From positions 1,051,947 to 1,107,312 of the forward strand of contig CP070784.1 of NCBI GenBank assembly GCA_020346605.1: a DNA stretch of 55,366 nt, written 5' to 3'. Source of the DNA: Candidatus Bathyarchaeota archaeon. GTDB lineage: Archaea > Thermoproteota > Bathyarchaeia > TCS64. A program made the position numbers and the translations under genes. Below the pieces are notes generated by a model that was not told the DNA's origin, did not search any database, and saw nothing but the letters and a program-made list of their open reading frames with translations. Each line of letters begins with the position of its first letter. Within the stretch, counting starts at the first letter, position 1. This document shows positions 1 to 43,094 of the stretch, piece after piece.

Positions 1-77
1 CGCGCGCGTTTCCAAAATTAAGATTTAGTCCACAACAACCGTTTTACAGGTTATTTATATAACGAATTAACTTCTAA

Positions 78-794
78 ATGCGCAAGAAGCGAAAAACCAT
101 GAGAAAAGGGGTTAAAGAGCAAATTCAACCCATGCCGTTTTGGCAGTCTCTGATCTTCTTCGGGATACCGGCACTGGTAGCAGCAGTATGCCAATATGTG
201 CTCTGGCCGTTCTTCATGAGTGTCGGCATAACCGAGGAAACAGCGTATCATTACCAGGCTTTGATAGTTTTCACGTTATTATTGAGTGCAGCTCTCGTGG
301 CTAACGTGATCGAAGGGAATTCTCTCGATTGGTCATCATTTAGACGTCGTTTACGTCTCTTTGGATTAGATAGAAGAGGATGGAAGTGGACGTTTGGGGG
401 CCTTATTACACAGATCCTTCTATCTCTAGCAGCTACAGTTCTCGCGAGCCAAGTCTATAACATTCTGAAATTTACGCCTCCAGACATATCGCCATCTGGT
501 CCGATGCTAAACCTACCCTTGATGGCGTTCGTTCTGTTTATGAATAGCATGAGTGAGGAGCTGTGGTGGCGGGGATACATCCTTCCTCGGCAGGAGAAAC
601 AACACGGGCGATATGCTTGGGCCATTCACGGTGTGTTATGGGCCTTCTTCCATGCATTCAAGTGGTGGGCTGTTCCGTTCATGCTGTTTACCACCTGGAT
701 CATCCCATTCATTACTCAGCGAATGGGGAACACCACGCCTGGAGTTATCATCCATCTAGTTATCAACGGCCTGGGGATTCTTCTCATGGTTTAG
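78..794 (+). CDS. CPBP family (CAAX protease/Abi) intramembrane metalloprotease
   Basis: Multi-TM ORF with the SEELWWRG (EExxxR), FHAF and HxxxN motifs; visibly AT-richer codon usage than its neighbours; the start could be at 99. Confidence 0.85.
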   Translation: MRKKRKTMRKGVKEQIQPMPFWQSLIFFGIPALVAAVCQYVLWPFFMSVGITEETAYHYQALIVFTLLLSAALVANVIEGNSLDWSSFRRRLRLFGLDRRGWKWTFGGLITQILLSLAATVLASQVYNILKFTPPDISPSGPMLNLPLMAFVLFMNSMSEELWWRGYILPRQEKQHGRYAWAIHGVLWAFFHAFKWWAVPFMLFTTWIIPFITQRMGNTTPGVIIHLVINGLGILLMV

Positions 795-1038
795 ACTTTC
801 CTACAGTTTGGGTTTGGGTGTGTGGGGGGATAAAATTTAATCCCCAAAACTCAACTCGGGAAATTAGGTTTGAATTACGCATAGTAGTATCAAGTCGCGC
901 GCTTGTTCATTGCTGACAAAATCTTTGGAAAATTATAGAAGTAAAAGTTTTGTGTATGGGAGCACATTTTTATTCCAGACTTATAGCTAATTATTCCATA
1001 ACCTGAGCAGCTGATGGTAGCAATGTTCGCTGATTGAG

Positions 1039-2274
1039 ATGGCTGAAAACCCTGCGGGTAGATGGGACTTTCTGAAGGGTAACATCGGCGTCATGATTCT
1101 TAGCTCAGGTCTGTGGGACATCGCATTCGCCATGACATGGCCCTTCTACGCGCTCTACGTCCTAGAGCTGGGGGGGAGCTACATGGACATAGGCCTCATC
1201 TCCGCCCTGGGGGCGGTGGCAAAGATAGCCCCAACACTGTTCGGGGGCTACCTAACCGACGCCCTGGGGCGGAAGAGGATACTCTACACGCTGAGCTTCC
1301 TCTTGGCCGTCAACGAGTTGATCTACGCCTACGCCCCGGACTACAGGTACATCTACGTCGGTGCGGTCGTCGGCTCTCTCCTCCACGGGTTCAGGGAGCC
1401 AGCGTTCCAGTCAATCATCTTCGATTCCACGAAGCCGGAGAGTCGCGCCCTCTCCGTCGCCACGCTGCAGGTGACCTCCTCACTCTTCGGACTCCTTTCC
1501 CCCTACGCCGTGGGCCTGCTGATAGACGACAGGGGTATCCTGCCGGCCATGCGGTTCGCCTACGTCTTCACCTTCGCGATGGCCACTGTTGCCTCCCTCA
1601 TGAGGTACAGGTTCATCGAGGAGACCCTGGAGAACGGGCGGAGTGTGGAGAAAGACCCGAGGGCAGCGGTGAGGGAGATCCTCTCCGACTTCGTGGCGAC
1701 CTTCAGGGAGCTGCCAGTCCAGCTATGGACCTTCCTACTGATCGACTTCGTCATCACCTTCGCCTGGGCCGTTGGCGAACCCTACTTCGTCACATACGCC
1801 AAGGAGGTGGTGGGCCTCTCGGCGGCCCAATGGGGGCTCGCCACGATGCTCACCATGGCGCTCCCGATAGTCCTCAAGCTGCCACTTGCCAGGGCCTCTG
1901 ACCGCCACGGCAGGATCATGTTCATACTGCCCTGCATGTTCCTCTGGCCCATCGGCTTCCTGCTGTTCGCCTACAGCTGGGGATTCCAGGCCATCCTCGC
2001 CGCCAGGCTGCTGCTGACACTCGCAAGCAGCATCGGAGACCCTGCGTGGGAGGCGATGTTCTACGACTACTCGCCGAAGGAGTACCGCGGAAGGTTCGCA
2101 GCAATCGCCAGCGTCTCCTGGTCTCTGATCTGGGGGGCAGGGAACATCGTCGGCGGGGCGATCTACGGGGGGCACTCAAAGGCGCTCATCTTCTACATCA
2201 GCGCGGGGCTGCTGCTGTTGGGCGCGCTCGCCGCCTTCCTCAAGGTGAAGGAGCCTGAGAGACGCGCCGACTAA
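1039..2274 (+). CDS. MFS transporter
   Basis: 411 aa, about 12 TM segments, GYLTDALGRKR and ASDRHGR MFS motif-A loops. Confidence 0.9.
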   Translation: MAENPAGRWDFLKGNIGVMILSSGLWDIAFAMTWPFYALYVLELGGSYMDIGLISALGAVAKIAPTLFGGYLTDALGRKRILYTLSFLLAVNELIYAYAPDYRYIYVGAVVGSLLHGFREPAFQSIIFDSTKPESRALSVATLQVTSSLFGLLSPYAVGLLIDDRGILPAMRFAYVFTFAMATVASLMRYRFIEETLENGRSVEKDPRAAVREILSDFVATFRELPVQLWTFLLIDFVITFAWAVGEPYFVTYAKEVVGLSAAQWGLATMLTMALPIVLKLPLARASDRHGRIMFILPCMFLWPIGFLLFAYSWGFQAILAARLLLTLASSIGDPAWEAMFYDYSPKEYRGRFAAIASVSWSLIWGAGNIVGGAIYGGHSKALIFYISAGLLLLGALAAFLKVKEPERRAD

Positions 2275-2337
2275 GCAGCTCGCTACAGCCCTCACGAGGA
2301 AAACGACAATAGGTAGAACTCCAACTAAGACTCAGTT

Positions 2338-3582
2338 ATGAGGTTTGCCGTCCTCGCCGACGCCCACATCGGCCGCAGCATCCCCCTTGCCATAGCCGAG
2401 CACAGGCGCCGAGCCTTCTCCACCGCCTTCACCAAAGCGGTGGATGCCATCGTGGAAGCCGGTGTCGACTACGTCTTCATCTGCGGAGACCTCTTCGAGC
2501 GCCGCACCCTCCGCCCCTACCTCGTCCAGTTCACCCACGACGAGCTCTACAGGCTGTCGACGGAGACCGAGGAGAGGCACGGCAAGCCTACGAAGATCCT
2601 AATCATCCGGGGCAACCACGACGGCCGCTCCCAGTCCGATACCCTGGACTACATCAAGCACCCGCTGGCCGACTACCTCCACGTCTTCGAGGACGATAAC
2701 ATCACCTACAAGGACGAGAACCTCCACGTTGTAGGCCTCAACTACTACGACCAGGTCGACAGGGCCTTCGACCAGCTCGTCGTCCCCGCCTTCCAGGGGG
2801 CCGAAGGCACCAGGATACTTATGCTCCACGGCTTCGTCCAGGGCTACAACCAGGTCCCCCCCTACGAGAGCAGCGTCACACTGGACCAGCTAGCCTCCGT
2901 GGAGCCCGCCTTCGTTTTCACTGGCCACTACCACAGGCGCTGCCCCAGGAGGAGGTTGCCCAACGGCGGCTGGGCCCTCACTCCGGGCAGCCTGGAGATG
3001 TACGACTTCGCCGAGACCCCGGAGAAGGGCTTCTACATCGTGGACGCCAACGGCGAGGAGCCCCAGTTCACCTGGGTCCCCATCGAGCCCATGCACGCCA
3101 TGAAGCAGGTCAGAGTTGTGTCGGACCACAGCCGGGAGCCCCAATGGTACAGGGACAGGGTGGTGGAGAAGGTCGAGGCCTTCAGGGAAGAGCTCGTCGG
3201 GGCCGGGAAGGAGGGATACATCAGGGTACGGGTGCAGGGCGGCCTCAGGAACGGATACCCCGGTGACATCGACCTGTCCCCCGTCGATGAGATGGTCTCC
3301 TCAGACCCGCTCCTCCTCTGGGTTGACGTGGACACCCTCGGGATCGAGATGCCCCTGCTGGCCGGGGTCCCCGAGAGGGAGCTTGTGGACGTCAGGGCAT
3401 TCTTCTCCGCAATGGGGGAGTTCGCCGACGACATAGGGGAGATGCACGGCAGGATCCGTGAGACCCTGGAGGAGGAGGCGAGCCTGCAGACGGGGCTGCT
3501 CACACCCAGCCAGAGGATCCCCTTGGTCAAGGAGTGGGTTGAGCGCTTCGAGAAGCGGAGCTTCGGGGAGGACGAGCCATGA
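2338..3582 (+). CDS. mre11: Mre11/SbcD-family DNA repair nuclease
   Basis: Calcineurin-like phosphoesterase motifs DAH, GD, GNHD, LHG and GHYH; overlaps (ATGA) a Rad50-like gene. Confidence 0.88.
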   Translation: MRFAVLADAHIGRSIPLAIAEHRRRAFSTAFTKAVDAIVEAGVDYVFICGDLFERRTLRPYLVQFTHDELYRLSTETEERHGKPTKILIIRGNHDGRSQSDTLDYIKHPLADYLHVFEDDNITYKDENLHVVGLNYYDQVDRAFDQLVVPAFQGAEGTRILMLHGFVQGYNQVPPYESSVTLDQLASVEPAFVFTGHYHRRCPRRRLPNGGWALTPGSLEMYDFAETPEKGFYIVDANGEEPQFTWVPIEPMHAMKQVRVVSDHSREPQWYRDRVVEKVEAFREELVGAGKEGYIRVRVQGGLRNGYPGDIDLSPVDEMVSSDPLLLWVDVDTLGIEMPLLAGVPERELVDVRAFFSAMGEFADDIGEMHGRIRETLEEEASLQTGLLTPSQRIPLVKEWVERFEKRSFGEDEP

Positions 3583-5624
3583 TAGAGGAGCTCACCCTCC
3601 GGGGCTTCAAGTCCTACAGGAGCCGCCAGACCGTCAGGTTCACCCGGGGGGTCAACAAGATCTCGGGCCGAAACGCCTCTGGGAAGACCACCCTCCTCCA
3701 AGCGGTGCTCTTCGGCCTCTTCGGAGACGTCCCGGGCGTCAACAAGCAGGACCTGATCCCCCTCAACGGGGCAGACGTCGACGTCACCCTCGCCCTCCGC
3801 AGCCCCCTCAACGGGAAGAGGATCACCATCCACAGGGAGGGCGGCCAGACAAGGGATGGCGGGTTCCGCTCCTCCAAGAGCCTGCTCAAGGTCGAGGGGG
3901 AGGACGCCACGTACGCTCGTGAGCGGGAGATCCAGACCAAGCTAAGGGAGCTCATCGGCGTCGGCAGGAGCACCTTCTTCAACGTCGTCTACGCGCAGCA
4001 GAAGGAGTTCATTGAGATTCTCAAGCCCGATCGCCGGCGCATGGACGCTATACTGGGGCTCACCACTCCCGCCGAGATCAGGGAGCAGTTCCGAGAGGTG
4101 AGCAGGATGCTCAGGGATCGGGGGCGCATCGAGAAGCGCGGAGCCCTAGAGGAGAGGGTCAGGAACGCGGAGCAGGGAATCTCAGACCTGGATGGCCAGC
4201 TGGTGGAGGTCACCGAGCGCAGGCGCGATCTATCCGAGGGCCTCAACCAGATGAAGGTCCGACTCACCCTTGCCAACGGCCGGGTCGAGACCATGGACGG
4301 CATCCTCGCCGAGCTTAGGCGGGTGGAGATGTCACAGGCCGACTTGGAGCGCCTGCAGGAGCAGAGGGAGGACGTAGCCCGGGACCTGGAGGACATCTAC
4401 GTGGAGATGGGGGAGGATCCCGAGAAGACGCGCAGGGAGCTCCAGGAGCGGAGGAGCTCTGCGGAGACCACAGAGGAGGAGCTACGGCGCCTGCTCGACG
4501 GGAGGCTCGCCAGGGACAGGGCCGAAACAGTGGGCGCCGTCTCCCGATTGGAGCACCAAATCGGCGAGCACGTGGAGCTGAGGGAGCAGGGGGTCACCGT
4601 CTGCCCCAAGTGCGGCCAGGAGGTCAACTTCGACCTCTTGGAGAAGGACGTGAAGCAGTGGCAGGCTGAGCTCGAGCAGGAACGAGGCCGACTGAAGGCG
4701 CTGGAAAGGGAGATAAGCATGGTCCAGGAGCAGGCCAAGGCAGCCAGCCGCAGGTTCAGGGATGCCGACAGGGCAGTGATCAACTTCGTCAACCAGGAGA
4801 GGAGGATCAACGAGCTCAAGAAAACCATGCAGGACCTAGAGGCCAGGGGGGCCGACCTCCACGCCAGGATCGGCCGTGAGACCGAGGAGTTGCTGCTGAA
4901 GGCGGAGATGGAGCTCGCAACGGCCTTCGCCTCCCTCGAGGACGCCCAGGAGAAGATCGGCGAACAGCTCGACGGATCCCGCAGGGAGCAGAGGGAGCTC
5001 CAGGCCGAGGTCCGCTCGAGGGAGGACCGGCTCAAGGACGCTGACAGGGAAGAGGAGAGGATCCAGGGGCAGCAGGAGGGCCACCGTAAGGTCTTGGAGG
5101 AGTCGCTGGGGCTCCTAGACGGAATACGGGAGTACGAGGCCAAGATAAGGGCCGTCGACTCAATCCAGAGGCGCTACGGCGAGTACGAGCAGCAGTTGAG
5201 GGAGAACACGCTGAAGCTCCTGGAGTACCAGACCTATAACTACTTCCGCCGCCTCACAGACCAGCAGTCATACGCAGGGTGCCATATCGACAGGGAGCGC
5301 TACACGCTGGAGGTCCAGCCCCTCGGCGGAAACAGGATGATGCCCGCCTGGTTGGCAGGGGGAGGGCACGAGAGCCTTTTTGCCCTCGCGGAGCGCCTCG
5401 CCCTCCTCAGGGTAATGGGCTTTCCACACCTGTTGATTTTAGACGAGCCGACGGACGCTGTGGATTCGGAGAACGTCCCCCAGCTCCTGGAGTACGTAGC
5501 CCGGAGCAGCAGGGAGATCGGGCAGGTGTTGTTGGTGACCCACCACGGCCACGGCGAAGAGGAGGGCGTAAACTTGATAAGGGTGAGAAAGGTTGGCGAG
5601 GAGTCCAGAGTCTACCAAGAATAG
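3579..5624 (+). CDS. rad50: Rad50/SbcC-family SMC ATPase
   Basis: Walker A GRNASGKT, Q-loop YAQQ, coiled coils with a central CPKC zinc hook, Walker B LLILDEPT and H-loop VTHH. Confidence 0.88.
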   Translation: MIEELTLRGFKSYRSRQTVRFTRGVNKISGRNASGKTTLLQAVLFGLFGDVPGVNKQDLIPLNGADVDVTLALRSPLNGKRITIHREGGQTRDGGFRSSKSLLKVEGEDATYAREREIQTKLRELIGVGRSTFFNVVYAQQKEFIEILKPDRRRMDAILGLTTPAEIREQFREVSRMLRDRGRIEKRGALEERVRNAEQGISDLDGQLVEVTERRRDLSEGLNQMKVRLTLANGRVETMDGILAELRRVEMSQADLERLQEQREDVARDLEDIYVEMGEDPEKTRRELQERRSSAETTEEELRRLLDGRLARDRAETVGAVSRLEHQIGEHVELREQGVTVCPKCGQEVNFDLLEKDVKQWQAELEQERGRLKALEREISMVQEQAKAASRRFRDADRAVINFVNQERRINELKKTMQDLEARGADLHARIGRETEELLLKAEMELATAFASLEDAQEKIGEQLDGSRREQRELQAEVRSREDRLKDADREEERIQGQQEGHRKVLEESLGLLDGIREYEAKIRAVDSIQRRYGEYEQQLRENTLKLLEYQTYNYFRRLTDQQSYAGCHIDRERYTLEVQPLGGNRMMPAWLAGGGHESLFALAERLALLRVMGFPHLLILDEPTDAVDSENVPQLLEYVARSSREIGQVLLVTHHGHGEEEGVNLIRVRKVGEESRVYQE

Positions 5625-5652
5625 TACAAGGAACTTAAATGATCTCTTAAAA

Positions 5653-5773
5653 CTATCTGTTAGGGTTGGTGAGTGATATAATGGTCTTGGTGTTGGACAC
5701 TTCCTCGACGTCGTTGCGCGCGCATGTCCTTCATGCTATCAGGGGTCTCGGTGACCACCTTCAGCAGCGTATC
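5653..5773 (-). pseudogene. C-terminal remnant of an Lrp/AsnC ligand-binding domain gene
   Basis: Minus strand reads DTLLKVVTETPDSMKD, then after a GCGCGCGC tract (frame change) NDVEEVSNTKTIISLTNPNR*; matches the AsnC pattern D-x-LLKV...V-x-x-T-x-T-x-I-x-L; host-like codon usage. Confidence 0.7.
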
Positions 5774-5817
5774 GCGCGCGTACGCATTACAAATATATTT
5801 TGATGAAAAACTGTGAG

Positions 5818-6393
5818 TCATGATCGAATTGGATAAACTGTGCAATTTGAGCAGAACCAAGGAGAAGCCGAGAATACCCATTTCTCGGTCATCACGCCTT
5901 TAGAAGATATTTTTTTCTTTACATAAAGATAATTCATATCCAGATCGTCAACTATCTTGAAGAAGCCTGGCTTTTCCTTCCAGGTCCAATAGATGCAATG
6001 ACCTTCTCTATCCCTGTGGTGGCAGCTCGTCATCATGGTGCTACCTCTATTAATTGAGAGCGAATAATCCAGTTGTGTCATCAGTTCATTTCTCTTCCTC
6101 AGCCACTCCTCGGAATGCCTCGTGCGCGTGACCTCATCATATTCACGTACTGTCAACGAATTCTTCTCGGTCTTCGCCTGCTCCCGTAGGTTTGTGATCA
6201 GCTTCCAGAGTTCAGGGTCATATGGACCGACTCCTCGCTCCGTCTGCCCCTTTCTGCGGGTAATGTATCTGTGACCTTTTACAGTTTTAGCCCTGAAATT
6301 CCACCCATCCGATATGAGTCCCCGAATCTCATCCTCATCAATTTTCATAACCATGGGAAACTCAACCCACGTTGGAATGATGAAATTTCCCAT
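5818..6393 (-). CDS. Hypothetical mobile-element protein with a possible small N-terminal DNA-binding domain
   Basis: KTVKGHRYITRRKG..ERGVGPY resembles SSV1 D-335/integrase-N-type DNA-binding domains; C-terminal Cys cluster; the real start may be 6348 (MKIDE). Confidence 0.55.
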   Translation of the reverse strand: MGNFIIPTWVEFPMVMKIDEDEIRGLISDGWNFRAKTVKGHRYITRRKGQTERGVGPYDPELWKLITNLREQAKTEKNSLTVREYDEVTRTRHSEEWLRKRNELMTQLDYSLSINRGSTMMTSCHHRDREGHCIYWTWKEKPGFFKIVDDLDMNYLYVKKKISSKGVMTEKWVFSASPWFCSNCTVYPIRS

Positions 6394-6625
6394 ATTAATG
6401 TGTTTCCCATCGGTTTACCATGAAGGGGCTGCTTACTTTCGGTGTGACCTTCTCCCCTACCTGGTTATGCCGGTTTACCCTGTTTACCACCGAATATTTG
6501 AGGGGTAGGCTAGCCTACTTCCCATCAGAAGCTCTTGTATACGTTTGCATCAATACCTTCATCGTAGCCCTCATCTGTACCCAGTGTCCTTTACTACGGG
6601 GTTTGAGTCGACATGGTTTACCATG
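6351..6625. repeat. Iteron-like short repeats GGTTTACC(A) and TTTCCCAT
   Basis: GGTTTACCATG at 6412, GGTTTACCC at 6472, GTTTACCAC at 6482, palindromic CATGGTTTACCATG at 6612-6625; TTTCCCAT at 6386 and 6403, TTCCCAT at 6519, and an inverted copy in 6351-6360. Confidence 0.55.
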
Positions 6626-6699
6626 TAAGACCCGAGTATGGGCGCGCGCCGTTTAGAACTCGCGAGCACGCTTAAAAGAGGTGGGCTTTTTCGCTCACG

Positions 6700-7482
6700 G
6701 TGGTTAAACAAACGGAAATAAAGCTCGACGTCCTAATTTCTATGGGGGACTGGATGAGTCATCTACGATGCCCTCTCTGTGGCTTGAACGCCGCTGTTTC
6801 TAGGTTTGACCCTTCCGGACTCGATTTAGACTTGAGGGCGACGAGTTTCAGAGGGCTTGGCTATGGAAGAGGCTTCGCGCCAGTGGAGGAGCACTCGGTT
6901 CTGGGGGATGACGAATTTTCACCGCTGGTTGCAGAACGCGTCTTATCGCTCTGTATGATGTTCCTAGATGCGGGGGTTATCAACTCTGAGTACACGATAG
7001 ATAAGCTCGGACTGAAACCAAAATCATCAATGTCCATCGAGTCTCCTACGCGCCCTGAAATCCGAACCGTGCTTTTACCCTCAGAACTGAATAGTGTTGA
7101 ACTCACTCGTGCACGTGAAACCATAAAAGAGCAAGAAAAAGAGTTAGAGCGTGAGAGAATGATAGACAGAGAGCTGCTAAGATTCATCAGAGATTATCCG
7201 TATGTAGAAATAAATGAGGAGGAAGTACCATGGACAATAGATATAACCGATGTTGACACCGAAAGCCTTCAAACACTAATTTTACTTTACGGGTATTTAG
7301 ATATTGACACACAGAAACACCTCCTAAAAAGACTGAAGACCGAACACCCCTTAGTTGAATATTTTTTAGAACTATTTATGGTAAAACCTAAAAAAACAAT
7401 AGCCCAAAGGATAATGGAATTCGATGCAAACAAGGTTAGAACCAATATTAAAAGCGGTTTACAGGAACGCTGGTTCGAGTAA
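6700..7482 (+). CDS. Hypothetical protein with N-terminal CPLC motif and GLGxGRGF motif
   Basis: 260-aa ORF, AT-rich; likely start 6739 or 6751. Confidence 0.65.
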   Translation: MVKQTEIKLDVLISMGDWMSHLRCPLCGLNAAVSRFDPSGLDLDLRATSFRGLGYGRGFAPVEEHSVLGDDEFSPLVAERVLSLCMMFLDAGVINSEYTIDKLGLKPKSSMSIESPTRPEIRTVLLPSELNSVELTRARETIKEQEKELERERMIDRELLRFIRDYPYVEINEEEVPWTIDITDVDTESLQTLILLYGYLDIDTQKHLLKRLKTEHPLVEYFLELFMVKPKKTIAQRIMEFDANKVRTNIKSGLQERWFE

Positions 7483-7597
7483 ATTTGACAAATAAAATAA
7501 CTGGTGTGTGCACAATAAAATCACGTGTGAGTGCACACTCATGTATAATGTTGCGCGTAGCTGATCTAGTGTGCTAGGATCAAAGTTCGCAATAAAA

Positions 7598-7918
7598 TTA
7601 GGAGGTGAGGGATTCACTAACTTCCTTGATCAGCGGTATGCTCAGCTCCGCCGATGAGACCCCTGTGTTGAACGCCATCAGCGCAGCCGCCTGGATCTGC
7701 TCCTTGGACGCGCCGGCGTCGAACGCGAGCCTGGTGAAGTGCCTCAGCGCCACCGGGTCCCTCGTGGTCGAGTAGATGCCGACCAGTATCAGGTTCCTCG
7801 TCTTCTCGTCGAGCACTCCGTCCTTGTTTATCGCCGCGGAGAGCTTTATGTAGGCCTCCGCCGCCTCGGGGGTCTCCTCGTTGAAGATCTCCCAGACACT
7901 CTTGCTCAATTCTACCAC
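7598..7918 (-). CDS. Carboxymuconolactone decarboxylase/AhpD family protein
   Basis: GVLDEKTRNLILVG...H..LAFDAGASKEQI pattern; TATA-like TTTATA upstream; lacks CxxC. Confidence 0.85.
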   Translation of the reverse strand: MVELSKSVWEIFNEETPEAAEAYIKLSAAINKDGVLDEKTRNLILVGIYSTTRDPVALRHFTRLAFDAGASKEQIQAAALMAFNTGVSSAELSIPLIKEVSESLTS

Positions 7919-9547: not shown

Positions 9548-9907
9548 ATGGTCTACTGCACAAAATGTGGGACTCAGAACGAGGATGGGGCCTCCAACTG
9601 CGTGAGCTGTGGGGCCTCCCTCAGGGTGTCCCGGCGAGTGAGGAGGGGCTGGGAGGAAGAGATCGAGGTGCGCGCGGAGGAGTTCGGGGAGAGGGCGGAG
9701 GAGTTCGGCAGACGAATGGAGGCCGAGTGCTTCGGCCTGCCCCGAGGGAACTCGATCATCGGGGTCCTCATAGGTCTCGCCATCATCCTCGTGGGAGTTC
9801 GCGAGCTCCTCGGCTGGAGCATCGACCTCGGGCCCTTCGCAGCCATTGTGGTGGGCGTCCTCATCATCGCAGGAGCCCTTTACAGGCAGAGTCAGGGGAG
9901 ACCCTGA
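9548..9907 (+). CDS. Zinc-ribbon domain membrane protein
   Basis: CTKCG...CVSCG zinc ribbon and two C-terminal TM helices. Confidence 0.85.
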   Translation: MVYCTKCGTQNEDGASNCVSCGASLRVSRRVRRGWEEEIEVRAEEFGERAEEFGRRMEAECFGLPRGNSIIGVLIGLAIILVGVRELLGWSIDLGPFAAIVVGVLIIAGALYRQSQGRP

Positions 9908-10255
9908 TCGCGCGCCCTCCTTTTTCAGGCGACCACACGTCGTCGATGGATTCCTAGGAAGGATGAGCTAGATTTTCTTCAATCTTAACGACGTTTTCGT
10001 ACCTGACGATGTAGTTTACATGGCTTTTTCGTCCTGGTTCATCTCCGCCTCTCATCGATTCATATCCTCAAAATCCGTATAAACTCCAAGGATGATTGCT
10101 CTGGATCCGTGTGAAGGTCAGCACCCCCATAGAGTTGGTCGCAGAAGCCTCCACAACGCGCACTGTGGGTAACCAAATTCTACTGTCGCCCCACATTGAT
10201 GTTTACTCAAAATCCGTGTTCGCGCTCTTTTCCCCGCATGCAACTCGCAAGGGTG

Positions 10256-11791: not shown

Positions 11792-11918
11792 TATGAGACC
11801 AGATCATGAATCGAGTCATTATTAGTTTTCTACGCGCGCCAGGTTTACAGTGGAACCTCGTCTCCGAGCGGGTATGTGTCAATACTTAAAAGGCCATTCG
11901 GACAAGTCGACTAACGCC

Positions 11919-12365
11919 ATGAAAGAAGGGGACTTCAATCAAGTCAAAGATCAGGCTGGCCCCTGCGGTATAGCGTGTGGAGCGTGTGTCCTGGGGAACG
12001 GTACCATTGCGGAAACGGCTGAGAAGACCAAGGAGCACATCACGGGGTACGGGATAAAGGAGTGGGCTCCTGCGACCCCTGGTGGCGGCGACCTCAACTG
12101 GGCTGAGACCGAGAGGACGCTGGATTGGATGATCCAGAACGCCAACTGTGCTGGCTGCGAGAGGGGAGGCGGCCCCCCTGACTGCGCTATCAGGACCTGC
12201 TCGGGTGACAAAGGCTTCGAGCTGTGCAGTCAGTGTGACGGACTGGACGACTGCTCCGAGTTCGACTGGCTGCAGGACTACGGTAAGACGCTCAAAGGGA
12301 TTCTAAGGGACAACAGAGGATTATCAAAAGAGGAATACGTGGAAAGACAATTAGCTAATTCGTAA
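11919..12365 (+). CDS. DUF3795-type cysteine-rich protein
   Basis: PCGIACGAC, CAGC, CAIRTC and CSQCxxxxxC; start taken at MKEGDF. Confidence 0.8.
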   Translation: MKEGDFNQVKDQAGPCGIACGACVLGNGTIAETAEKTKEHITGYGIKEWAPATPGGGDLNWAETERTLDWMIQNANCAGCERGGGPPDCAIRTCSGDKGFELCSQCDGLDDCSEFDWLQDYGKTLKGILRDNRGLSKEEYVERQLANS

Positions 12366-12431: not shown

Positions 12432-12630
12432 ATGACTGAAAACGCCGTTAGGACCGCCTGCCCCAGGGACTGCTACGATCCCTGCTCCCTCAGGGTCACC
12501 GTTGAGGGCGGGAAGATCATCAGGGTCGAGGGAGGCCCAGAGCCTCATCATGTCGGGGGAAGCCCAGGCTATCGGCGGAGGCCCCTTCTTCAACTCGACA
12601 ATGGTCAAGCTGAGGTCTTCACGGGGTTAG
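12432..12630 (+). pseudogene. Molybdopterin oxidoreductase mini-gene (5' end fused to 3' end), copy A
   Basis: RTACPRDCYDPCSLRVTVEGGKIIRVEG (N-terminal 4Fe-4S domain) joined near 12540 to LIMSGEAQAIGGGPFFNSTMVKLRSSRG* (C-terminal motif) in another frame. Confidence 0.8.
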
Positions 12631-12670
12631 CCCCACTACGCCAACCTGATTGCGCGCGCACACTGATAAA

Positions 12671-13411
12671 TCATGGAAGCTCTTCTATCGGCTTCACGTT
12701 TCCCAACACCGGTCTCGACCTCTCAACCGGTGCAGCCCAGCGAGTCGCGTTCTCGATCACCCTCAGCACGTTGGTGTCATGGTAGATCGGGTAGGACTCA
12801 TGCCCGGGGCTGAAGTAGAAGATCTTCCCCATGCCCCGGTAGAAGCAGCATCCGCTCCTGAAAACTTCACCCCCTTTGAACCAGCTGATGAAGACGAGCT
12901 CGTCGGGGCTGGGTATGCCGAAGGGCTCCCCGTACATCTCCGCGTGCTCTAACTCGAAGTAGTCTCCGATCCCCTCGGCGATAGGGTGCCCCTCCGACAC
13001 CACCCACAGGCGCTCCCTCTCGCCAGCCTCACGCCACTTAAGGTTGCAGTGGGTCCCCATCAGGCGCTTGAAGATCCGGGAGAAGTGGGCCGAGTGGAGA
13101 ACGATCAGCCCCATGCCGTCGTAGATTACCCTCCGGTATACCCTGTCGACGACGGCGTCGCTCACCTCCTCGTGCCTCATGTGCCCCCACCAGGTGAGGA
13201 CATCGGTCTCCGAGAGCATATCGTCTGTCAGGCCGTGCTCCGGCTCGTCCATCGTGGCGGTCCGGACGTCGAGGCCGGGTCTGCCCCTGAGGTACCCAGC
13301 GATGGCTCCGTGTATCCCCTCCGGGTAGATCTCGGCGATCTCGGGGTCCTTCTTCTCGTGCATGAACTCGTTCCAGACCGTGACACGGGTCTTACTCCTC
13401 AATCTCATCAC
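12671..13411 (-). CDS. thuA: ThuA-like (trehalose utilisation) protein
   Basis: [38 protein letters not shown] and FSPGHE motifs. Confidence 0.92.
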
Positions 13412-15363: not shown

Positions 15364-15430
15364 CTTCCCTATCCCACCTATCGTGCAATTCTTTAATTGT
15401 CGTATGGAATTTAAGGTCGAGGGTCAAGCA

Positions 15431-29167: not shown

Positions 29168-29176
29168 GGGACTCTG

Positions 29177-30384: not shown

Positions 30385-31836
30385 ATGGGCTTTCGTGACA
30401 AGTTCAAGAACGCAGATCACGCCCTCACCTTCAACGATGTTCTCCTTCTGCCCGGCTGGACCACCATCGAGCCGTCCGAGGCCGACGTCCGCAGCAGGGT
30501 GACCAGGAGCGTCGAGCTCGACGTCCCCTTCGTTTCCTCCCCCATGGACACGGTCACCGAGAGCGAGATGGCGATCGCCCTAGCCCGGCACGGTGGCCTA
30601 GGCGTCCTCCACAGGAACTGCACCGTCAAGGAGGAGGTGGAGATGGCGAGGATGGTTAAGAGGGCCGAAGCCCTCATCATCAGGGACGTCGTCACAGTCA
30701 GGCCCGACGCCACCATCGACGACCTGCTGGGGCTCATGGAGACTAAGAACATCCACGGCTTCCCCGTCGTCGACGGCGACGGCGGCATAGTGGGCATCGT
30801 CACCTGGAGGGACTTCCGCCTTGCGGACCGCACTCTCAAGGTCGAGGACGTCATGACCAAGGATGTGATCACCTCCGGGGAGAACACCACCCTGGAGGAG
30901 GCCAAGGCGATCCTCCACGAGCACCGCATCGAGAAGCTCCCCATCGTCGACGACGCCAACAAGGTGCGAGGCCTCATCACCATGAAAGACATCACCCTGA
31001 AGGGCACGTACCCCCACGCCATAAGAGATGAGCTGGGACGGTTGATCTGCGCGGCAGCGATCAGCCCTTTCGACATAGAGCGGGCCGTCGCCCTGGACGA
31101 GTACGTTGACATACTGGTCACCGACGTCGCCCACTTCCACAACAAGAACTGCTTCGACGCTGTCAAGAAGGTGCTGGACAAAGTCGACGCCGAGGTCATC
31201 GTCGGCAACATTGGAACTTACGAGGCCGCCGAGGACTGCCTCACCAAGCTGGAGGGAGTAGCGGGTCTCAGGGTCGGCATCGGCAGCGGCTCTATATGCA
31301 GTACTAGCGTCGTCACCAGGGCGGGCTCCCCCACTCTCTACGCCACCACCCAGGTAGCGGACGCGGTGAATGACTACGGCTCCGACGCCACCATCATTTC
31401 CGACGGAGGCATCAGGAACCCAGGCGACATCGCCGTCGCCCTCGCCGTCGGCGCCGACTGCGCCATGATGGGGAACGTCTTCGCTGGCACCAGCGAGAGC
31501 CCGGGGAGGCTCGTCGCGCTGGAGGGCAGGTACTACAAGGAGTACTATGGAATGGGGAGCGCAGCCGCCCGGCAGAAGCGTTTTGCCCAGGACAGGTACA
31601 GCCAGCCGTCAAAGACCATCAGCGAGGGGGTCGAGGGCTGGGTCCCTTACAGGGGCGGGGTCACGGACATCGTCTCGGAGTTCGTCGGCGGTCTCAAGGC
31701 CGCGATGGGTTACGTCGGCGCCAAGACCATACCCGAGATGGCGGAGAAGGCGAAGCTAGCGCTGGTCACCGAGAGGGGGGTACAGGAGATCAACCCCCAC
31801 GACATCCTGCTCCCCGGACCCAACAGGAAGACATAA
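30385..31836 (+). CDS. guaB: IMP dehydrogenase with CBS pair
   Basis: [33 protein letters not shown] and YYGMGS motifs. Confidence 0.97.
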
Positions 31837-32564: not shown

Positions 32565-33638
32565 GTGTCAAAGTCGCTACGTAGGATGTACCGTATCAAG
32601 CTCGAAGAGGAGCTGCCGGACCAGATCAAGATCGTCATAGGCGGGGACGAGGTCGTCTATGAGAAGAGCATGAGTCTCAGGTACGGGGAGAACCCCCACC
32701 AGCCCGCCGCGTTCTACAGCCCGGTGGGGGGAGAACTCACCGTAGGTGCCCTCGACGTCCTTAAGACGGGGAAGGGCGGCCTCAGCCAGACCAACGTGGA
32801 GGACATCAACAACAGCCTCAGCATCGTCCGCTACTTCGAAGAGCACGCCTGCGCCGTAATGAAGCACGTCAACCCCTCGGGCGTCGCCGCGTCCAGGAGG
32901 CCGGAGGACAAGCTGAAGGACGTCTACGCCAGGGCCCGGGACTGCGACAGCCTCGCCGCCTTCGGCAGCGTCGTCGGCTTCAACGCTACCGTGGACGAGG
33001 AGACGGCGGAGGAGATCCTGTCGTCCTACGTCGAGGTGGTCGTCGCCCCCAACTACGATGAGGGAGCTCTAGCCGTCTTCGACCGAAAGAAGGACCTGAG
33101 GGTCATCCGGGCTGGGAACCTGGACAAGATCAACCGCTTCGTAGGCGAGGACCCAGGGGCCCTGACCCTCTCAACACTGATGGACGGCTCCATCGTCCTC
33201 TCCGTGCCCCTCCTGACCAAGATCAGGAAGCCCAACGACATCGACTGGGTCACCGAGAGGCAGGCGACGGTCAACGAGGTCGCCGACCTCATATTCTCGT
33301 GGTACGTCTGCATGAACATCAGGTCCAATAAGGCGGTCCTCTCCAAGGACCGTGCCACCATCGGTATAGGAACGGGACAGCAGGACCGGGTGATGGCCGT
33401 CAAACTGGCTCTCGATAAGGCCGTCGAGCGGGGCAACAAGGACAAACTCCCTGGCTCAGTCCTAGCAACCGGGGGCTTCTTCCCCTTCAGGGACTCCATC
33501 GACCTCCTAGCGGAGCACGGCGTCACCGCCTGCATCCAGCCCGGCGGCTCAATGAGGGACAAGCAGGTCATCAAGGCATGCAACGAGCACGGCATCGCGA
33601 TGGGCTTCACCGGGGAGAGGTGCTTCAGGCACTTCTAG
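32565..33638 (+). CDS. purH: AICAR transformylase (PurH C-terminal domain, stand-alone)
   Basis: LRYGENPHQ, KHVNPSG, GQQDR, FFPF, QPGGS and RCFRH motifs. Confidence 0.92.
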   Translation: MSKSLRRMYRIKLEEELPDQIKIVIGGDEVVYEKSMSLRYGENPHQPAAFYSPVGGELTVGALDVLKTGKGGLSQTNVEDINNSLSIVRYFEEHACAVMKHVNPSGVAASRRPEDKLKDVYARARDCDSLAAFGSVVGFNATVDEETAEEILSSYVEVVVAPNYDEGALAVFDRKKDLRVIRAGNLDKINRFVGEDPGALTLSTLMDGSIVLSVPLLTKIRKPNDIDWVTERQATVNEVADLIFSWYVCMNIRSNKAVLSKDRATIGIGTGQQDRVMAVKLALDKAVERGNKDKLPGSVLATGGFFPFRDSIDLLAEHGVTACIQPGGSMRDKQVIKACNEHGIAMGFTGERCFRHF

Positions 33639-33954
33639 AACCCCTTTTTTTCAGGGGCTGCAGGTTTCGACGAGAACCTTCCCTCCATTCATGCGCGCGT
33701 ACGCAGCCCGTGGGGTCCATGACCTTTATGTCTGTGGCTCGAATCTACTCCCCGCAATAAACGTTCTCGTGGGGCGCATCACCGCTTAAGACTTATTGCT
33801 GATATTTGCGCGCGCAGTTTCAGGAGATCCCAACTCTTTGATGAGAAATGGACCATTGTCCATTTTCTTTTTGGTAGATGAGGTAGATCAAGCTGAGCAA
33901 ACTATAGCGATAACCGCCATTCGGCGACAGTACTTCGCCGTATGGATTTACGGA

Positions 33955-34292
33955 TCATAGTTGAAGTTTAATGTGCGCTATGCCAGGTCTCCTAAATTCC
34001 AACTTGTTGAACGCCAAGAACATTAACTGCCTGGAACTCCTTTCTCTCACGTTCTCGGACTCCACGAGGATCTTAATTGGCTCTACGAACTTGGTCTCAT
34101 AGACTCCGATTCTGGGTATCAACTCTATCCCGAGGTTCTCGGTTGAGACCACGATCGGTTCGCCTTGAAACTCTAGGAGGTTATCCAAGTCAGGCAGAGC
34201 GTTCTCAGAATAAACGTGCTCGATTGTTTTAAGAATCAGTCTTGCCTTGTCACGATCCGTCTCATTGAGCGTTGGGAATATGCCGAACCCGG
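33955..34292 (-). pseudogene. 5'-truncated AT-richer ORF fragment
   Basis: Frame open from the GC tract at 34293 (PGFGIFPTLNETDRDK...) to the stop at 33955, with no upstream start codon. Confidence 0.6.
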
Positions 34293-34430
34293 GCGCGCGC
34301 AGGCGCGCTAGGTTTAGGGTCCTTTAATCCTGAAAAACTCGGCGAACGCGCAAGGCACGTACGAAGGGAACAACATCGTTGCTTCGTGAAAAAGTTTTAT
34401 TGTTCGCCGATGAAGGTTCAAAGGACCGAT

Positions 34431-34784
34431 ATGGACGAGAAGCTGATATCCGTCTGCGGTATCGACTGCGGCGAGTGCCCCGCCTACATAGCCACAAAGG
34501 AGGACGACGTCGCTAAGCTGGCAGAGGTCGCCAAGCAGTGGGCGTCCGACGACATGCCACTAGATGCGGAGGACGTCGTCTGCGACAGCTGCCACGGCCC
34601 CAGACTCTTCAAGTGGTGCACCCAGTGCCCCACCAGGGCGTGCGCCGTGGAGAAGAGTAACCACACCTGCGCCGACTGCGGAGATTACCTCTGCGACAAG
34701 TTGAACGAATCCTGGAAAATGATGGGGGAATCCGCGGAGACCTTCAAGGCCAACCTGGACGAGATCAGGAGCCAACGCGCCTAG
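34431..34784 (+). CDS. DUF3795-type cysteine-rich protein
   Basis: CGIDCGECPAY, CDSC, CTQCPTRAC and CADCGDYLC motifs. Confidence 0.85.
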   Translation: MDEKLISVCGIDCGECPAYIATKEDDVAKLAEVAKQWASDDMPLDAEDVVCDSCHGPRLFKWCTQCPTRACAVEKSNHTCADCGDYLCDKLNESWKMMGESAETFKANLDEIRSQRA

Positions 34785-36127
34785 GCAGGATCCCTGGACA
34801 GAGGGCTCGTGCTGCAGTGGGGGCCCCCCAGCATGTCCAGATAGCTGTCCTTCCACTCCTTTACTCTTATCCCGTTTTCCCTTAGCTCGTCGTTCGTGGC
34901 ATGGTTCCTCTCATAGGCGATCACGACGCCAGGCTTGACTGTGACGACGTTGGTGGCCCCCCTCGCCTGCTCCATCAAAGCCAGCATGAGATGCTCCACG
35001 TCGTTCTCTTTCTCGGGGCGTCCACCGACGTAGATCAAACCGTCGGGCTCCAGCTTCTCCTCCTCGATCAGGAAGTTTACGAGGCTTGACCAGCGACCTA
35101 CAAGCTTAGGTCCATCATCGCCGCGCCCGTAGACCGAGCACGCCCCAGCCTCTTTGAAGGCGTCTGGATGGACCAGAGGACCCAGTGGCCTCCCATCCCT
35201 CTCCCCCTGTGCCCTCAGCGCCTCCAGCGCCTTCAGCAGTAGCCTCTTCGGTACGTCCTCCATCTCCCCGCAGTCGAAGACGTAGGGCATCACCAGCGCC
35301 CTCCCCCTGTCGGGATAGTTGATCACGACGTCCAGGTGCATGTAATCCAGCGCCGGAAGGTCGGGGAGGCGGACCGCACAGATGTACCTGAGCCCGCCAT
35401 CAGCGTCTCGCTCGAAAAGCTTCTTCGCCGCTTCCATGAAGCCCGTGTGGGTAGACCTCTGCCCGATCCCCACGGCGGTCGTCTCCTCGTCCACGATCTG
35501 AGTGTCTCCCCCCTCGATGCAGGGGGGCTCCGAGAGCCCATCACTCGCCTCGTTGGCGTCATAGACGATTTCGGTCTTCTCGCTTAGGACGGGATCGTAC
35601 TCATAGGCTATCTTCACGACGCGTGGCTCGAACCGTCTGCTGTACCTCCTCATATTGCAGATCACGGTGCCTACTTGTGTCGTGAACGATGTGTCCCTCG
35701 GGTACGGCCAGCCCACCCTCTGGAAGTCGGGGAGCACCACCCGGTCCAACGCCTCGTCGAAGAAGGGCGTGGAAGGGAAGCCGCGGAACAGATGCCCAAC
35801 GGTGAGCTCCTCCGGTGCAGGCGCCGCCGGCATCCCCTCCCAGACCTCGCCCACTATGCTCCTCCGCTCCCCGACGGTCGCCCCGTCGAGCACCTTCTCC
35901 AGGACTTCCGCCAGCTCGAAGACCCTGACCCCCTCCTCCTCCAGCATCCTGGGGAGCCGCCCCCACTGCTCCCTCCCGCCGTCGATGTCCGAGTGGGGGC
36001 ACCTGGCAAGCAGATGCGTGTTCGACTCGATGCCAGCGAAAGGGAACTTTTTCTCCCAGAACTCCTCGATGGACTCCTGCACGAGGACGGCGCGAAGGGT
36101 CCCCGACTCCGAGCTGACGGTCCACAT
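34781..36127 (-). CDS. Arginine deiminase/amidinotransferase family protein
   Basis: SESGTLRAV, PRD, IEGGD, MHLD and GGPHCST catalytic motifs. Confidence 0.88.
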   Translation of the reverse strand: MWTVSSESGTLRAVLVQESIEEFWEKKFPFAGIESNTHLLARCPHSDIDGGREQWGRLPRMLEEEGVRVFELAEVLEKVLDGATVGERRSIVGEVWEGMPAAPAPEELTVGHLFRGFPSTPFFDEALDRVVLPDFQRVGWPYPRDTSFTTQVGTVICNMRRYSRRFEPRVVKIAYEYDPVLSEKTEIVYDANEASDGLSEPPCIEGGDTQIVDEETTAVGIGQRSTHTGFMEAAKKLFERDADGGLRYICAVRLPDLPALDYMHLDVVINYPDRGRALVMPYVFDCGEMEDVPKRLLLKALEALRAQGERDGRPLGPLVHPDAFKEAGACSVYGRGDDGPKLVGRWSSLVNFLIEEEKLEPDGLIYVGGRPEKENDVEHLMLALMEQARGATNVVTVKPGVVIAYERNHATNDELRENGIRVKEWKDSYLDMLGGPHCSTSPLSRDPA

Positions 36128-42131: not shown

Positions 42132-42132
42132 G

Positions 42133-42846
42133 ATGAGGGTAGTAACGTTCATAAGGGGCTCGGAGCTGGGCGTCGCTATCGCCTCCACCTACATGGTCGC
42201 GGTGACCATGATCCAGACCTCCATCTACGCGATGCTCAAGCCCTACCTGCTGACAGTGCTCGGTCCCATCATGATGGTGCTGGGGACCGACGTCCAGTAC
42301 GTGGACATAGTCGTGCTGGGATTGGCGATGGGCCTCTCCTTCAGCTTCTGGCGTAGGGGCGACGAGGCCGGCTTCGGTCGGCTCTTCAGCCTCAACATGC
42401 TGATGTTCTTTCCGTCGGTGCTGGACTTCTCTACCTTCAACTGGGTGAACCTCATCCTGCCCTACGAGCCGTCCCCAGCCGTCGGCTCCCTCTGGGTTTT
42501 CGGCGTAGGCCTCCTCCTCCAGGCTACTTATCTCGCCCTCAGGTATACAGTGCGGTTCCGCATGGCGAGGAACGAGTTCTTCGAACGGGGCGCCGATCCG
42601 GAGGACATCGACGATGTCTCCAGGGGCCAGATGGGCTACCTCGCAGCCCTGGTACTTGGGACAGTCGTCGTCTCCGTCACCGTCTACTACCTTGCTCCCA
42701 TCGTGACCGACATGGTCAGCACCGAGGTCCTCGGTATCCCCTACCTCCACGTCGTGGTCGGGGCGGTCTGTACGCTGCTAATCGCAGGAGCCACCGTCTT
42801 CTACCTCAGGGACGGAGGGGTACAAACGGCTTCCACGGTGCAATGA
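42133..42846 (+). CDS. Membrane protein
   Basis: Hydrophobic ORF, last gene of the MoxR operon. Confidence 0.75.
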   Translation: MRVVTFIRGSELGVAIASTYMVAVTMIQTSIYAMLKPYLLTVLGPIMMVLGTDVQYVDIVVLGLAMGLSFSFWRRGDEAGFGRLFSLNMLMFFPSVLDFSTFNWVNLILPYEPSPAVGSLWVFGVGLLLQATYLALRYTVRFRMARNEFFERGADPEDIDDVSRGQMGYLAALVLGTVVVSVTVYYLAPIVTDMVSTEVLGIPYLHVVVGAVCTLLIAGATVFYLRDGGVQTASTVQ

Positions 42847-42865
42847 GCCTTATTCTTGCGCGCGC

Positions 42866-43094
42866 AGGGTCGTCAACGCCTCCCTCGGCGAGTATGGGTA
42901 CTTGAGCAGGGAGGACTCGGCATCTCTGGTCATCGTGCGCGCGGCGAGGTGACCCCCCGGATCTAGCCTCCCTGGGGAGGGCCGTCGAGACTCTCCTGCT
43001 GGCGGTGGCCGCGGCGATCACCAAAACGATGCTCCGCATCAGGGCTCGGCCCGATCCAGTCGTAGGCTCAGACGGGGGTATCAATATTTATTAA
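42866..43094 (+). pseudogene. Broken C-terminal remnant of a probable membrane-anchored protein
   Basis: RVVNASLGEYGYLSREDSASLVIV | GC tract and frame change | PPDLASLGRAVETLLLAVAAAI...; host-like codon usage; begins at a GC tract. Confidence 0.45.

Follow-up and report, generated by a model that had tools for sequence, protein, structure and literature searches.

What is the origin of the alternating G/C runs that recur across a 55,366-bp stretch of DNA from a Candidatus Bathyarchaeota archaeon? This stretch, called the window below at its full length (G000:C1:1051947-1107312), belongs to a 2.30-Mb draft metagenome-assembled genome (MAG), G000, which consists of 103 contigs joined via 100-N spacers, is rated 92.8% complete with 6% contamination and has a G+C content of 58%. 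For one gene of the window, the closest public records are without exception Bathyarchaeia/Bathyarchaeota MAGs. A sequence-only reading of the window had taken the runs for scars of an end-joining system in which broken ends receive self-complementary (GC)n tails. Here a tract is a maximal alternating G/C run. The tracts proved to be genuine, in excess and lineage-specific; homology breaks off where they stand, parent-like sequences lack them there, and one tract is found with different partners in different copies or species. The presence of GCGCGCGC at joints of unrelated DNA points to a way of cutting and joining not described before. We favour, tentatively and at slightly less than an even chance, the reading that GCGCGCGC is the joint element of a lineage-specific break-and-join process.

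A run scan of the window recovered the 12 runs of at least 8 nt, the 7-mers and the shorter or imperfect tracts that had been listed from the sequence. Exact GCGCGCGC occurs nine times in the window against an expectation of 0.90 ± 0.93, and none of 100 dinucleotide-preserving shuffles reached nine. The whole genome has 239 G/C runs of at least 8 nt and 250 copies of GCGCGCGC, where Markov models of order 1-3 expect 17-38. Run counts in G000 were 9852, 1793, 325 and 130 for lengths of 4, 5, 6 and 7 nt, then 120, 77, 28, 9, 3 and 2 for lengths of 8 to 13 nt; in non-genic DNA the counts for lengths 6-10 were 93, 67, 92, 69 and 20. This hump at 8-9 nt is seen for G/C alone; counts of AT, AC, GT, AG and CT runs fall off geometrically, both in genes and in spacers. 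GCGCGCGC is also the top over-represented 8-mer of non-genic DNA (192 copies, 16 expected). As an index for comparing genomes we used the share of GCGCGCGC among GCSSSSGC words, for which equal use of all sixteen would give 1/16, or 6%. The index is 20.5, 22, 13, 9 and 15% in G000, G001, G002, G003 and G004, a set of five species from a single genus; G009 and G015, from two other genera, reach 29% and 13%, and G014 reaches 10%. The index is 0-2% in G005, G006, G008, G011-G013 and G017-G026.

The element itself is an invariant 8-bp palindrome, found by preference as T-GCGCGCGC-A and extended by chance, and not the variable (GC)n tail that had been proposed. The GCGCGCGC phase is used in 72 of the 92 non-genic 8-mers, and 9-mers are the core plus G or C. 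The base before the tract is T in 82 of 188 cases and the base after it is A in 88 of 188. At paired tracts, on the side facing the enclosed DNA (the filler), A comes directly after the left tract in 26 of 42 cases, and T directly before the right one in 22 of 42; on the outer side the same T/A rule holds in 17 and 20 of 42. The filler side thus obeys the rule at least as strongly as the outer side, as would be expected of a rule that governs all joined ends. Besides this T and A, the flanks of the non-genic tracts showed no conserved base and no palindromy past the tract. An origin from hairpins, P-nucleotides or dimers was rejected, as flank complementarity ends at position 1. A small RNA family was rejected as well: there is no Rfam match in the window, and the fillers have no common C/D-box pattern by eye.

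Where related copies of a sequence exist within the genome, they diverge at the tracts. The 9-nt tract at window position 24296 is a clear case. A paralogue (genome 85998-86059) is 93.5% identical up to the tract and then reads ...CCCAGT|GAACAC... instead of the 9-mer. At genome position 2293915 a tract stands in place of ~750 nt between two parts that are colinear with a paralogous locus, and the left part is bounded by another tract. Copies A and B of one block (98% identical) have deletions nested one within the other, and CGCGCGCGC closes each of them. Further paralogues that lack the tract and run on into unrelated sequence were found for 646684, 485413, 1527337, 2264008, 508691 and 506037. 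Two tRNA pieces show the same: a 3′ part of tRNA-Pro with its trailer starts at a tract, and a 3′ part of tRNA-Met ends in one, with CGC common to both; neither tract is in the parent. Altogether the tract was missing from the parent-like sequence at the break in at least eight inspected cases, so the expectation that neither parent would supply it was borne out. A G/C overlap of 1-3 nt (microhomology) is present at the tRNA-Met, tRNA-Pro, 485413 and 24296 joints. Counting members of repeat families more than once, a tract is no more than 5 nt away from 26 of the 272 distinct intra-genome homology end points, where ~6 are expected (flat background ~3.3 per 10 nt). These paralogue breaks and end points agree with the proposal that tracts sit at homology breaks, deletion joints and edges of captured or foreign DNA. 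Cut-and-religate by a restriction enzyme at GCGCGC, which had been offered as an alternative, is disfavoured because the paralogous parents have no GCGC-type word at the inspected breaks; no search for restriction genes was made.

ARAGORN reported several tRNAs with 'introns' of 900-2900 nt, for example at genome 119667-121112, 1418340-1420977 and 2071293-2074281. These calls are likely false joins of fragments, because the one at 119667 at least is a stray tRNA-Pro 3′ piece.

The placement of tracts relative to genes is equally uneven. By our crude gene calls, 188 of the 239 runs of at least 8 nt are outside genes. Among the 51 runs inside genes, 30 are within the terminal 15% or less of the called open reading frame (ORF); the in-gene runs are often in short, low-scoring ORFs, and ~10 are inside long, high-scoring genes, where they encode Ala-Arg. 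When the window is aligned to five related genomes, 27% of it stays unaligned, and all 12 window runs of at least 8 nt fall in that part; in the aligned part just two runs reach 7 nt, a coding 7-mer at 9670 and another 7-mer at 9909. The claim that long tracts avoid intact genes was thus upheld in the window. A tract is within 20 nt of the stop in 24 of 108 cases with an adjoining gene 3′ end and within 20 nt of the start in 5 of 117. Five tRNA genes have a tract 3-46 nt beyond their 3′ end. The median spacer is 94 nt long overall and 666 nt long where it holds a tract. Tract density is 2.1 per 10 kb in contigs below 10 kb and 0.8-0.9 in larger ones, a 2.3-fold difference, and a (GC)3 or longer run is found within 30 nt of 4 of the 206 contig ends. 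As for the idea that tracts mark edges of AT-richer DNA, AT-rich inserts do contain tracts; the composition step at tracts is modest (mean absolute G+C difference 0.086, against 0.057-0.076 at shifted positions), and the outer edges of the insert at 5625-7590 are tract-free.

The tracts of the window and the features that adjoin them are as follows; those given without a strand have none.

1-8: CGCGCGCG, contig start, directly after a 100-N spacer
896-902: CGCGCGC 7-mer, in a 990-nt AT-rich stretch (GC 0.45) not aligning to relatives
5625-7590: window-specific AT-rich insert of ~1.97 kb between two convergent genes, with two ORFs without family match
5818-6393 (minus) and 6700-7482 (plus): the two insert ORFs, no PHROG or Pfam family
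5716-5723: GCGCGCGC, inside the 5625-7590 insert
5773-5780: CGCGCGCG, 49 nt past the 5716 tract and 38 nt beyond the stop of ORF 5818-6393 (minus)
6642-6649: GCGCGCGC, between the divergent insert ORFs
7552: imperfect tract, inside the 5625-7590 insert
7952, 19335 and 34303, among others: 6-mers, alternating G/C runs
9670: 7-mer, the longest run in conserved coding DNA
9909-9915: CGCGCGC, 2 nt past the stop of a zinc-ribbon gene (9548-9907)
11833-11839: 7-mer, in the divergent spacer ahead of a DUF3795 gene (11850-12365)
12432-12651, plus strand: 5′ remnant of a molybdopterin oxidoreductase gene, decayed and limited to the Fe4S4 domain, reaching the tract at 12652
12652-12659: GCGCGCGC, 12 nt from the stop of a ThuA gene (12671-13411, minus); synteny break
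16668-16675: CGCGCGCG, 8 nt past the stop of gene 15353-16660
23981-24295, minus strand: DUF4760-like gene body abutting the tract at 24296; weak Pfam match (E 0.049), clear paralogue alignment
24296-24304: GCGCGCGCG, break in the DUF4760-like gene
24440-25195, minus strand: HpcH/HpaI aldolase gene unit, imperfect tracts at 24416 and 25244
25920-25928: GCGCGCGCG, in unaligned DNA, ~165 nt past a conserved small gene (26085-26429, minus)
30074-30081: GCGCGCGC, 90 nt past the stop of gene 29177-29983
33649-34431: extra DNA of ~700 nt between gene 32565-33638 and a DUF3795 gene (start 34432)
33693-33699: GCGCGCG, in the 33649-34431 extra DNA
33808-33815: GCGCGCGC, 108 nt past the 33693 tract
33958-34290, minus strand: open frame of 111 codons without a start codon, beginning at the tract at 34293; no family match (Pfam, PHROG)
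34293-34308: GCGCGCGC-AG-GCGCGC, where the start-less open frame begins
42858-42865: GCGCGCGC, 12 nt past the stop of gene 42133-42846
42937-42943: GCGCGCG, 71 nt past the 42858 tract

No tRNA gene was found in the window. The tract at position 1 is at a contig start because G000 is built of 103 contigs joined by N runs. Several reading frames had been named as cut at tracts. Two of them stand: the DUF4760-like gene, where the 9-nt tract at 24296 puts the upstream ATG out of frame with the gene body, and the start-less frame at 34293, which reads as a 5′-truncated gene fragment. The labels 'AsnC' and 'HD' could not be confirmed, as the open frames next to the tracts gave no Pfam match. The molybdopterin oxidoreductase fragment at 12432-12651 had no match among solved structures.

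Comparison with the relatives shows what the window looks like where the tracts are missing. None of its 12 tracts is present in the syntenic loci of relatives. The genes at 3579-5624 and 7598-7918 are ~10-30 nt apart in four genomes of the genus and 1.97 kb apart, with three tracts, in the window. At 33.6-34.4 kb, seven of seven relatives have a tract-free spacer of ~50-110 nt, where the window has ~790 nt and four tracts. The 42858 tract is missing from the syntenic loci of G002, G003, G004 and G005. Tracts 12652, 16668 and 30074 lie where the orthologues of the neighbouring genes sit on different contigs in relatives; at 16668 the orthologues of the left and right neighbours are on different contigs or genomes, and those of 29177-29983 in G002 and G004 are on contigs other than those of its present neighbours. 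The aldolase gene is also on other contigs in G002 and G004, with perfect tracts of 8-10 nt on both sides, where the window has decayed ones. The 9909 tract is at the same place in G000, G001 and G004, and the DNA behind it differs between G000 and G001/G004; the G002 row of this alignment, being wrongly oriented, was left out.

The junctions were also compared with the contigs of single sequencing runs, rather than raw reads, over one 11.5-kb stretch; window parts without contig coverage in runs X4 and X5 were left out of the evidence. Contigs from two samples of one study, one of which may be the source of the MAG, match 25224-26199, 28435-30443 and 33609-35000 with 0-2 differences and hold tracts 25920, 30074, 33693, 33808 and 34293; those at 25920 and 30074 are unchanged in X1 contigs. 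In a second study, a 152-nt contig of run X5 matches 33680-33831, and so tracts 33693 and 33808, with no difference. One X1 contig joins 33645 to 34408 and apparently represents an allele without the 762-nt tract-bearing insert. Loose contig ends at 24296 in runs X1, X4 and X5 continue as the paralogue does. Junctions therefore recur beyond one library, in per-run contigs of two studies, and the excess recurs in other species.

Many tracts come in pairs or short arrays. Among 52 tract pairs no more than 160 nt apart, the gap was 26-39 nt in none and 40-58 nt in 21. Filler length ranges overall from 2 to 600 nt with its mode at 40-58 nt, and the fillers are unrelated to one another. Pairs 38-62 nt apart number ~5-11 per strand in each of G002, G004, G009 and G015 and occur once in G005. 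Fragments of genes and tRNAs of 40-600 nt have tracts on both sides; one filler is an internal 53-nt piece of tRNA-Cys with a tract at each end, and a 135-nt filler reads as a fragment of a substrate-binding-protein gene in our own reading of the sequence, made without a family search. Of 87 fillers of 26-600 nt, 22 match elsewhere in the genome, 12 of these in called genes, and 13 of the 22 alignments extend to within 6 nt of a tract. DDE transposase remnants are seen near arrays: a DDE_Tnp_1 remnant at genome 1835925-1836689 (minus) has its 3′ end running into a 10-nt tract right after a three-tract array, and in G009 a DDE transposase remnant is ~600 nt from a three-tract array.

The same tract can be joined to different DNA. 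In a four-copy block all copies end at one GCGCGCGC, followed by A and then by four different continuations; a 42-aa gene remnant beside this block had no full-length relative in G000. Two loci have X-tract-53 nt-tract in common, after which their sequences part ways for more than 2 kb. At the tRNA-Ile locus, G004, which is 95% identical to G002 there, reads ...TCCTCGA-CGCGCGC-CCC... in a 78-nt spacer, and in G000 a 1.35-kb A+T-rich insert ends in a 10-mer tract at the place of the G004 tract, its other edge being without a tract. As tracts are re-used with different partners, they are also sites of further breakage or joining and not merely passive scars; this, and the joints that have no tract at all, changed the earlier picture of the tract as a seal. 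The 1.35-kb insert (genome 2136563-2137958; L205 1616-3010) codes for a repeat protein with recurring W-x-W-D/N-G-x-x-W motifs, Kelch-like in appearance, and looks foreign. About 120 nt from tRNA-Ile, G004 and G002 have one tract-bounded filler in common, 48 nt long in G004 (G004:C79:3971-4026) and 50 nt long in G002 (G002:C58:11509-11566), with both tracts kept.

The reading that we favour would account for these observations as follows. DNA ends would be joined illegitimately, with one 8-bp unit written between them that has its template in neither partner. This would take place when DNA is deleted, when pieces of genes, tRNAs or foreign DNA are captured and when gene-sized units change places, and 0-3 terminal G/C nucleotides of a partner may serve as microhomology. 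We infer that the joint is where the unit is made or attached, perhaps by a polymerase that needs no nucleic-acid template, by reiterative copying, or by ligating a self-complementary oligonucleotide. The finished tract would stay the preferred place of the next break and would itself be cleaved again, with the TGCGCGCGCA context as a candidate re-cleavage site. Scars that are re-cut in this way would move towards gene ends and gain new partners or fragments, giving tract-filler-tract arrays. They would end against stop codons and tRNA ends because selection stops further loss there. Joining and re-use together would account for the untemplated tracts, the symmetric T/A rule, the nested deletions and the new partners. 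A bolder version is speculative and in our view unlikely: a dedicated machine, working from a protein template or an oligonucleotide adapter and without a nucleic-acid template, would write exact GCGCGCGC at every joint and re-open the marks for deletions or for stacking captured pieces of genes, tRNAs and foreign DNA into small arrays.

Several results weigh against joining and re-use. It leaves the fixed length and the tract-free joints unexplained. A constant 8 nt is not expected of free tailing and annealing and is better matched by target-site duplication. Not every joint is marked: no tract is seen at either outer edge of the 5625-7590 insert or at the left edge of the insert beside tRNA-Ile, and a 478-nt stretch of low G+C content (0.37) at window 26391-26868, where the flanking genes are 40-63 nt apart in G001, G002 and G004, has none either. 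The 'empty' tRNA-Ile site of the sister species already has a 7-mer tract, and the retention of the 9909 tract in three species could mean a function. The parent-like sequences are paralogues of 69-99% identity and not true ancestors, our gene calls, which cover 83% of the genome, are crude, and the relatives are all draft MAGs, so that a gene not found in them may still be present.

The enzyme search adds to this list. Ku (PF02735) was found in none of five tract-rich genomes (G000, G001, G003, G004 and G009; 58-93% complete), with a positive B. subtilis control. LigD-type Prim-Pol (PF09250) had no match in G000, the sole genome searched for it, and RVT_1 had none in the five genomes of the genus; G009 alone has one. 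PolX (572 aa) is present in 23 of 31 genomes, including the tract-poor G005, G011, G013 and G017-G026, and two ATP ligases occur in like numbers in tract-rich and tract-poor genomes. PolX was not found in the tract-rich G009. The terminal-transferase-like polymerase or primase that had been suggested as the source of the tails thus received no support: neither Ku nor Prim-Pol turned up in the genomes searched for them, and the distribution of PolX does not follow the trait. Among other candidates, the C5-methyltransferase family PF00145 was found in no tract-rich genome (N4/N6 methyltransferases were not searched), Cas1 was not found in G000, G001, G002 and G004 and is represented by a 127-aa fragment in G003, and TnpB was not found in G000, G002 and G004. 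Tyrosine recombinases (PF00589), Xer-type included, were not found in G000, with a positive control in 14 of 14 reference genomes. DDE_Tnp_1 occurs in all five genomes tested, tract-poor G005 included, and one G000 copy is cut at a tract. As the trait is patchy among genera (index 0-29%), the responsible gene should be findable by phylogenetic profiling.

The main rival, which we consider unlikely though it deserves to be taken seriously, is that fragments are captured by a process that duplicates its target site. An enzyme like a transposase or integrase would make an 8-bp staggered cut at GCGCGCGC, the gaps would be filled in, and stray DNA would be ligated between; each event would add one tract and one filler, and ends that became separated would carry the tract to new partners. 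The fixed 8-bp unit follows directly, as do arrays of unrelated fillers with a minimum of ~40 nt, and the same arrays are present in G002, G004, G009 and G015 (5-11 per strand) and once in tract-poor G005. That the fillers are arbitrary pieces from tract-free parents, that tracts are re-used, that the tRNA-Ile site without the insert has a 7-mer in the sister species and that DDE transposase genes are present would all fit. Against it, the empty 33.6-kb site is tract-free in seven of seven relatives; the tract at 2293915, between colinear parts, is a deletion and not an insertion, and fillers, whose ends should be arbitrary, follow the A/T rule no less strongly than the outer sides do. Many single tracts at synteny breaks and inserts with a tract at one edge exist as well, and of the enzymes that might do the work, Cas1 (G000, G001, G002, G004) and tyrosine recombinase (G000) were not found, while DDE_Tnp_1 occurs in tract-poor G005 too. 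More doubtful still is an order of events in which the tract came first, as a functional site (binding, termination, boundary) or a fragile, Z-DNA-prone site at the ends of gene units where rearrangements concentrate by site-specific or breakage-driven recombination. The 9909 tract, 2 nt past a stop in G000, G001 and G004, would suit it, and so would the tracts just beyond stops and tRNA 3′ ends, the tract-flanked aldolase gene of G002 and G004 and the re-use of tracts. Most tracts are species-specific, however, with the window's 12 not in the syntenic loci of relatives; parents are tract-free at the break, and even junk such as the tRNA-Cys piece is bracketed. The flanks have nothing conserved beyond T/A and no wider palindrome, the window has no Rfam match, and G000 has no detected tyrosine recombinase.

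Two further explanations have very little probability. A mutational or repair drive, HIP1-like and linked to a methyltransferase, or a GC microsatellite tolerated only outside genes would produce a strong excess of an 8-bp palindrome, and enrichment outside genes is expected if selection removes slippage by 2 nt from coding sequence. Run lengths form a hump at 8-9 nt in place of a tail, however, which is unmatched in other dinucleotide repeats; the tract replaces unrelated sequence in one step in comparison with copies that are 93-99% identical, homology end points pile up at tracts, and PF00145 is in none of the tract-rich genomes. The break-point data largely refute this explanation, which we consider scarcely credible. 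Assembly, binning or library chimeras at GC-rich words, the least probable of the explanations considered, had been named as an alternative by the sequence-only reading. A draft MAG of 103 contigs with 6% contamination, a 2.3-fold tract density in contigs below 10 kb and a window that starts at a tract are what one would expect of it. An 8-nt word is far below assembler word sizes, though, and the excess is found in four further species of the genus and in two other genera. Five window tracts are unchanged in per-run contigs of two samples, 33693 and 33808 are in the second study, and G002 and G004 have tracts in common at orthologous places; chimeras were for these reasons set aside.

Known systems resemble the GCGCGCGC joints in some respects and differ in others. 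In non-homologous end joining (NHEJ), filler or N-nucleotides are added by TdT and Pol mu in vertebrates, and Ku-LigD acts in bacteria and Methanocella. Untemplated bases at illegitimate joints, microhomology of 0-3 nt and capture of stray fragments are common to both, but NHEJ filler is random or G/C-biased and here it is one fixed 8-bp palindrome. To our knowledge, classical end joining among archaea is credited to Methanocella alone. Short interstitial telomeric repeats of vertebrates are inserted by telomerase, from an RNA template, during repair of double-strand breaks. They too are a defined repeat at repaired breaks with unrelated flanks and with empty sites in species that lack the event; in contrast, the tract is a palindrome of one fixed length, and RVT_1 was not found in the five genomes of the genus. 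CRISPR and casposon loci also have unrelated fragments split by a constant palindromic unit, a lower bound on fragment length, and loci that share units and then diverge. The unit here is 8 bp instead of 24-48 bp, the fillers are 40 to more than 600 nt long, and the arrays are short and spread over ~190 sites. A CRISPR array was rejected on the 8-nt unit, the non-uniform fillers and the failure to find Cas1 in four of five genus genomes; an integron cassette array was rejected as G000 has no detected tyrosine recombinase and no attC-like core or fold was seen around tracts.

HIP1 (GCGATCGC) is a highly iterated octamer palindrome of cyanobacteria whose function is unknown and which occurs in genes and spacers; we know of no report that it marks break points. 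Like the tract it is a lineage-specific, strongly over-represented, G+C-rich 8-bp palindrome. Unlike HIP1, ~4/5 of the tracts are outside gene calls, at homology breaks, and no C5-methyltransferase was found. The GC clusters of yeast mitochondria, which are 30-50 bp long, form sequence families and are thought to be mobile, are likewise G+C-rich palindromic islands in A+T-rich spacers and deletion end points; the tract differs in being 8 bp long and in having no conserved flank. Finally, defence-associated reverse transcriptases make protein-templated repeats, poly(GT/AC) in the case of DRT3 and poly(T)/poly(A) in the case of DRT7 (10.64898/2026.04.18.719102). As far as the available part of that report goes, defined repeat DNA, even an alternating dinucleotide, is written there without a nucleic-acid template, but by bacterial systems that make long polymers in phage defence, and this part reports no GC product or genomic insertion. 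Such chemistry thus exists, yet these enzymes are reverse transcriptases, which the genus seems to lack. In the open-access literature (supplements excluded) we found no paper that describes GCGCGCGC joints in archaea, palindromes of Bathyarchaeia or archaeal non-templated filler.

Some further features were noted beside the tracts. Repeated blocks with several AATGGTACCATT-type palindromes lie beside tract-filler-tract ends at genome 646.6, 437.8-438.5, 1774.1, 1835.6, 12.2 and 1615.1 kb, and two copies of these blocks begin at contig ends. ATGGTACCAT has five copies in the genome, four of them within 100 nt of a tract. A link of the tracts to GGTACC palindromes was rejected, those being restricted to a few loci. 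The gene at 3579-5624, which adjoins the 1.97-kb insert, has an SMC/Rad50-like product of 681 aa; its partial matches to Rad50, an archaea-specific SMC-related protein and arcadin-4 are all far below the family cut-offs. A conserved motif of ~30 nt, CCCATACTCTTTTCTTCAC(T)TCGACCTAAT, is found 40-60 nt upstream of the start codons of ~19 small genes, among them the DUF4760-like genes and the aldolase gene, often in same-strand clusters of 3-4. Its sites include window 24395-24414 and 25265-25285 (minus) and genome 86135, 87051, 87435, 88298, 1608439-1610388 and 1913402-1914875. This motif might serve the genes as a common promoter or leader, or delimit gene-cassette arrays as a boundary element.

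How archaea seal breaks, lose genes and take up foreign DNA are largely open questions. A constant mark at illegitimate joints would be a natural record of every deletion and capture in a genome. It would also mean a new DNA-writing or joining activity, whose fixed palindromic adapter could be a useful tool, and would offer a test bed for genome remodelling in uncultured sediment archaea. If the bolder version, with its dedicated machine, were true, GCGCGCGC would act as a universal sticky end through which the genome is reshaped, and the machine might amount to a primitive fragment-capture system unrelated to Cas1.

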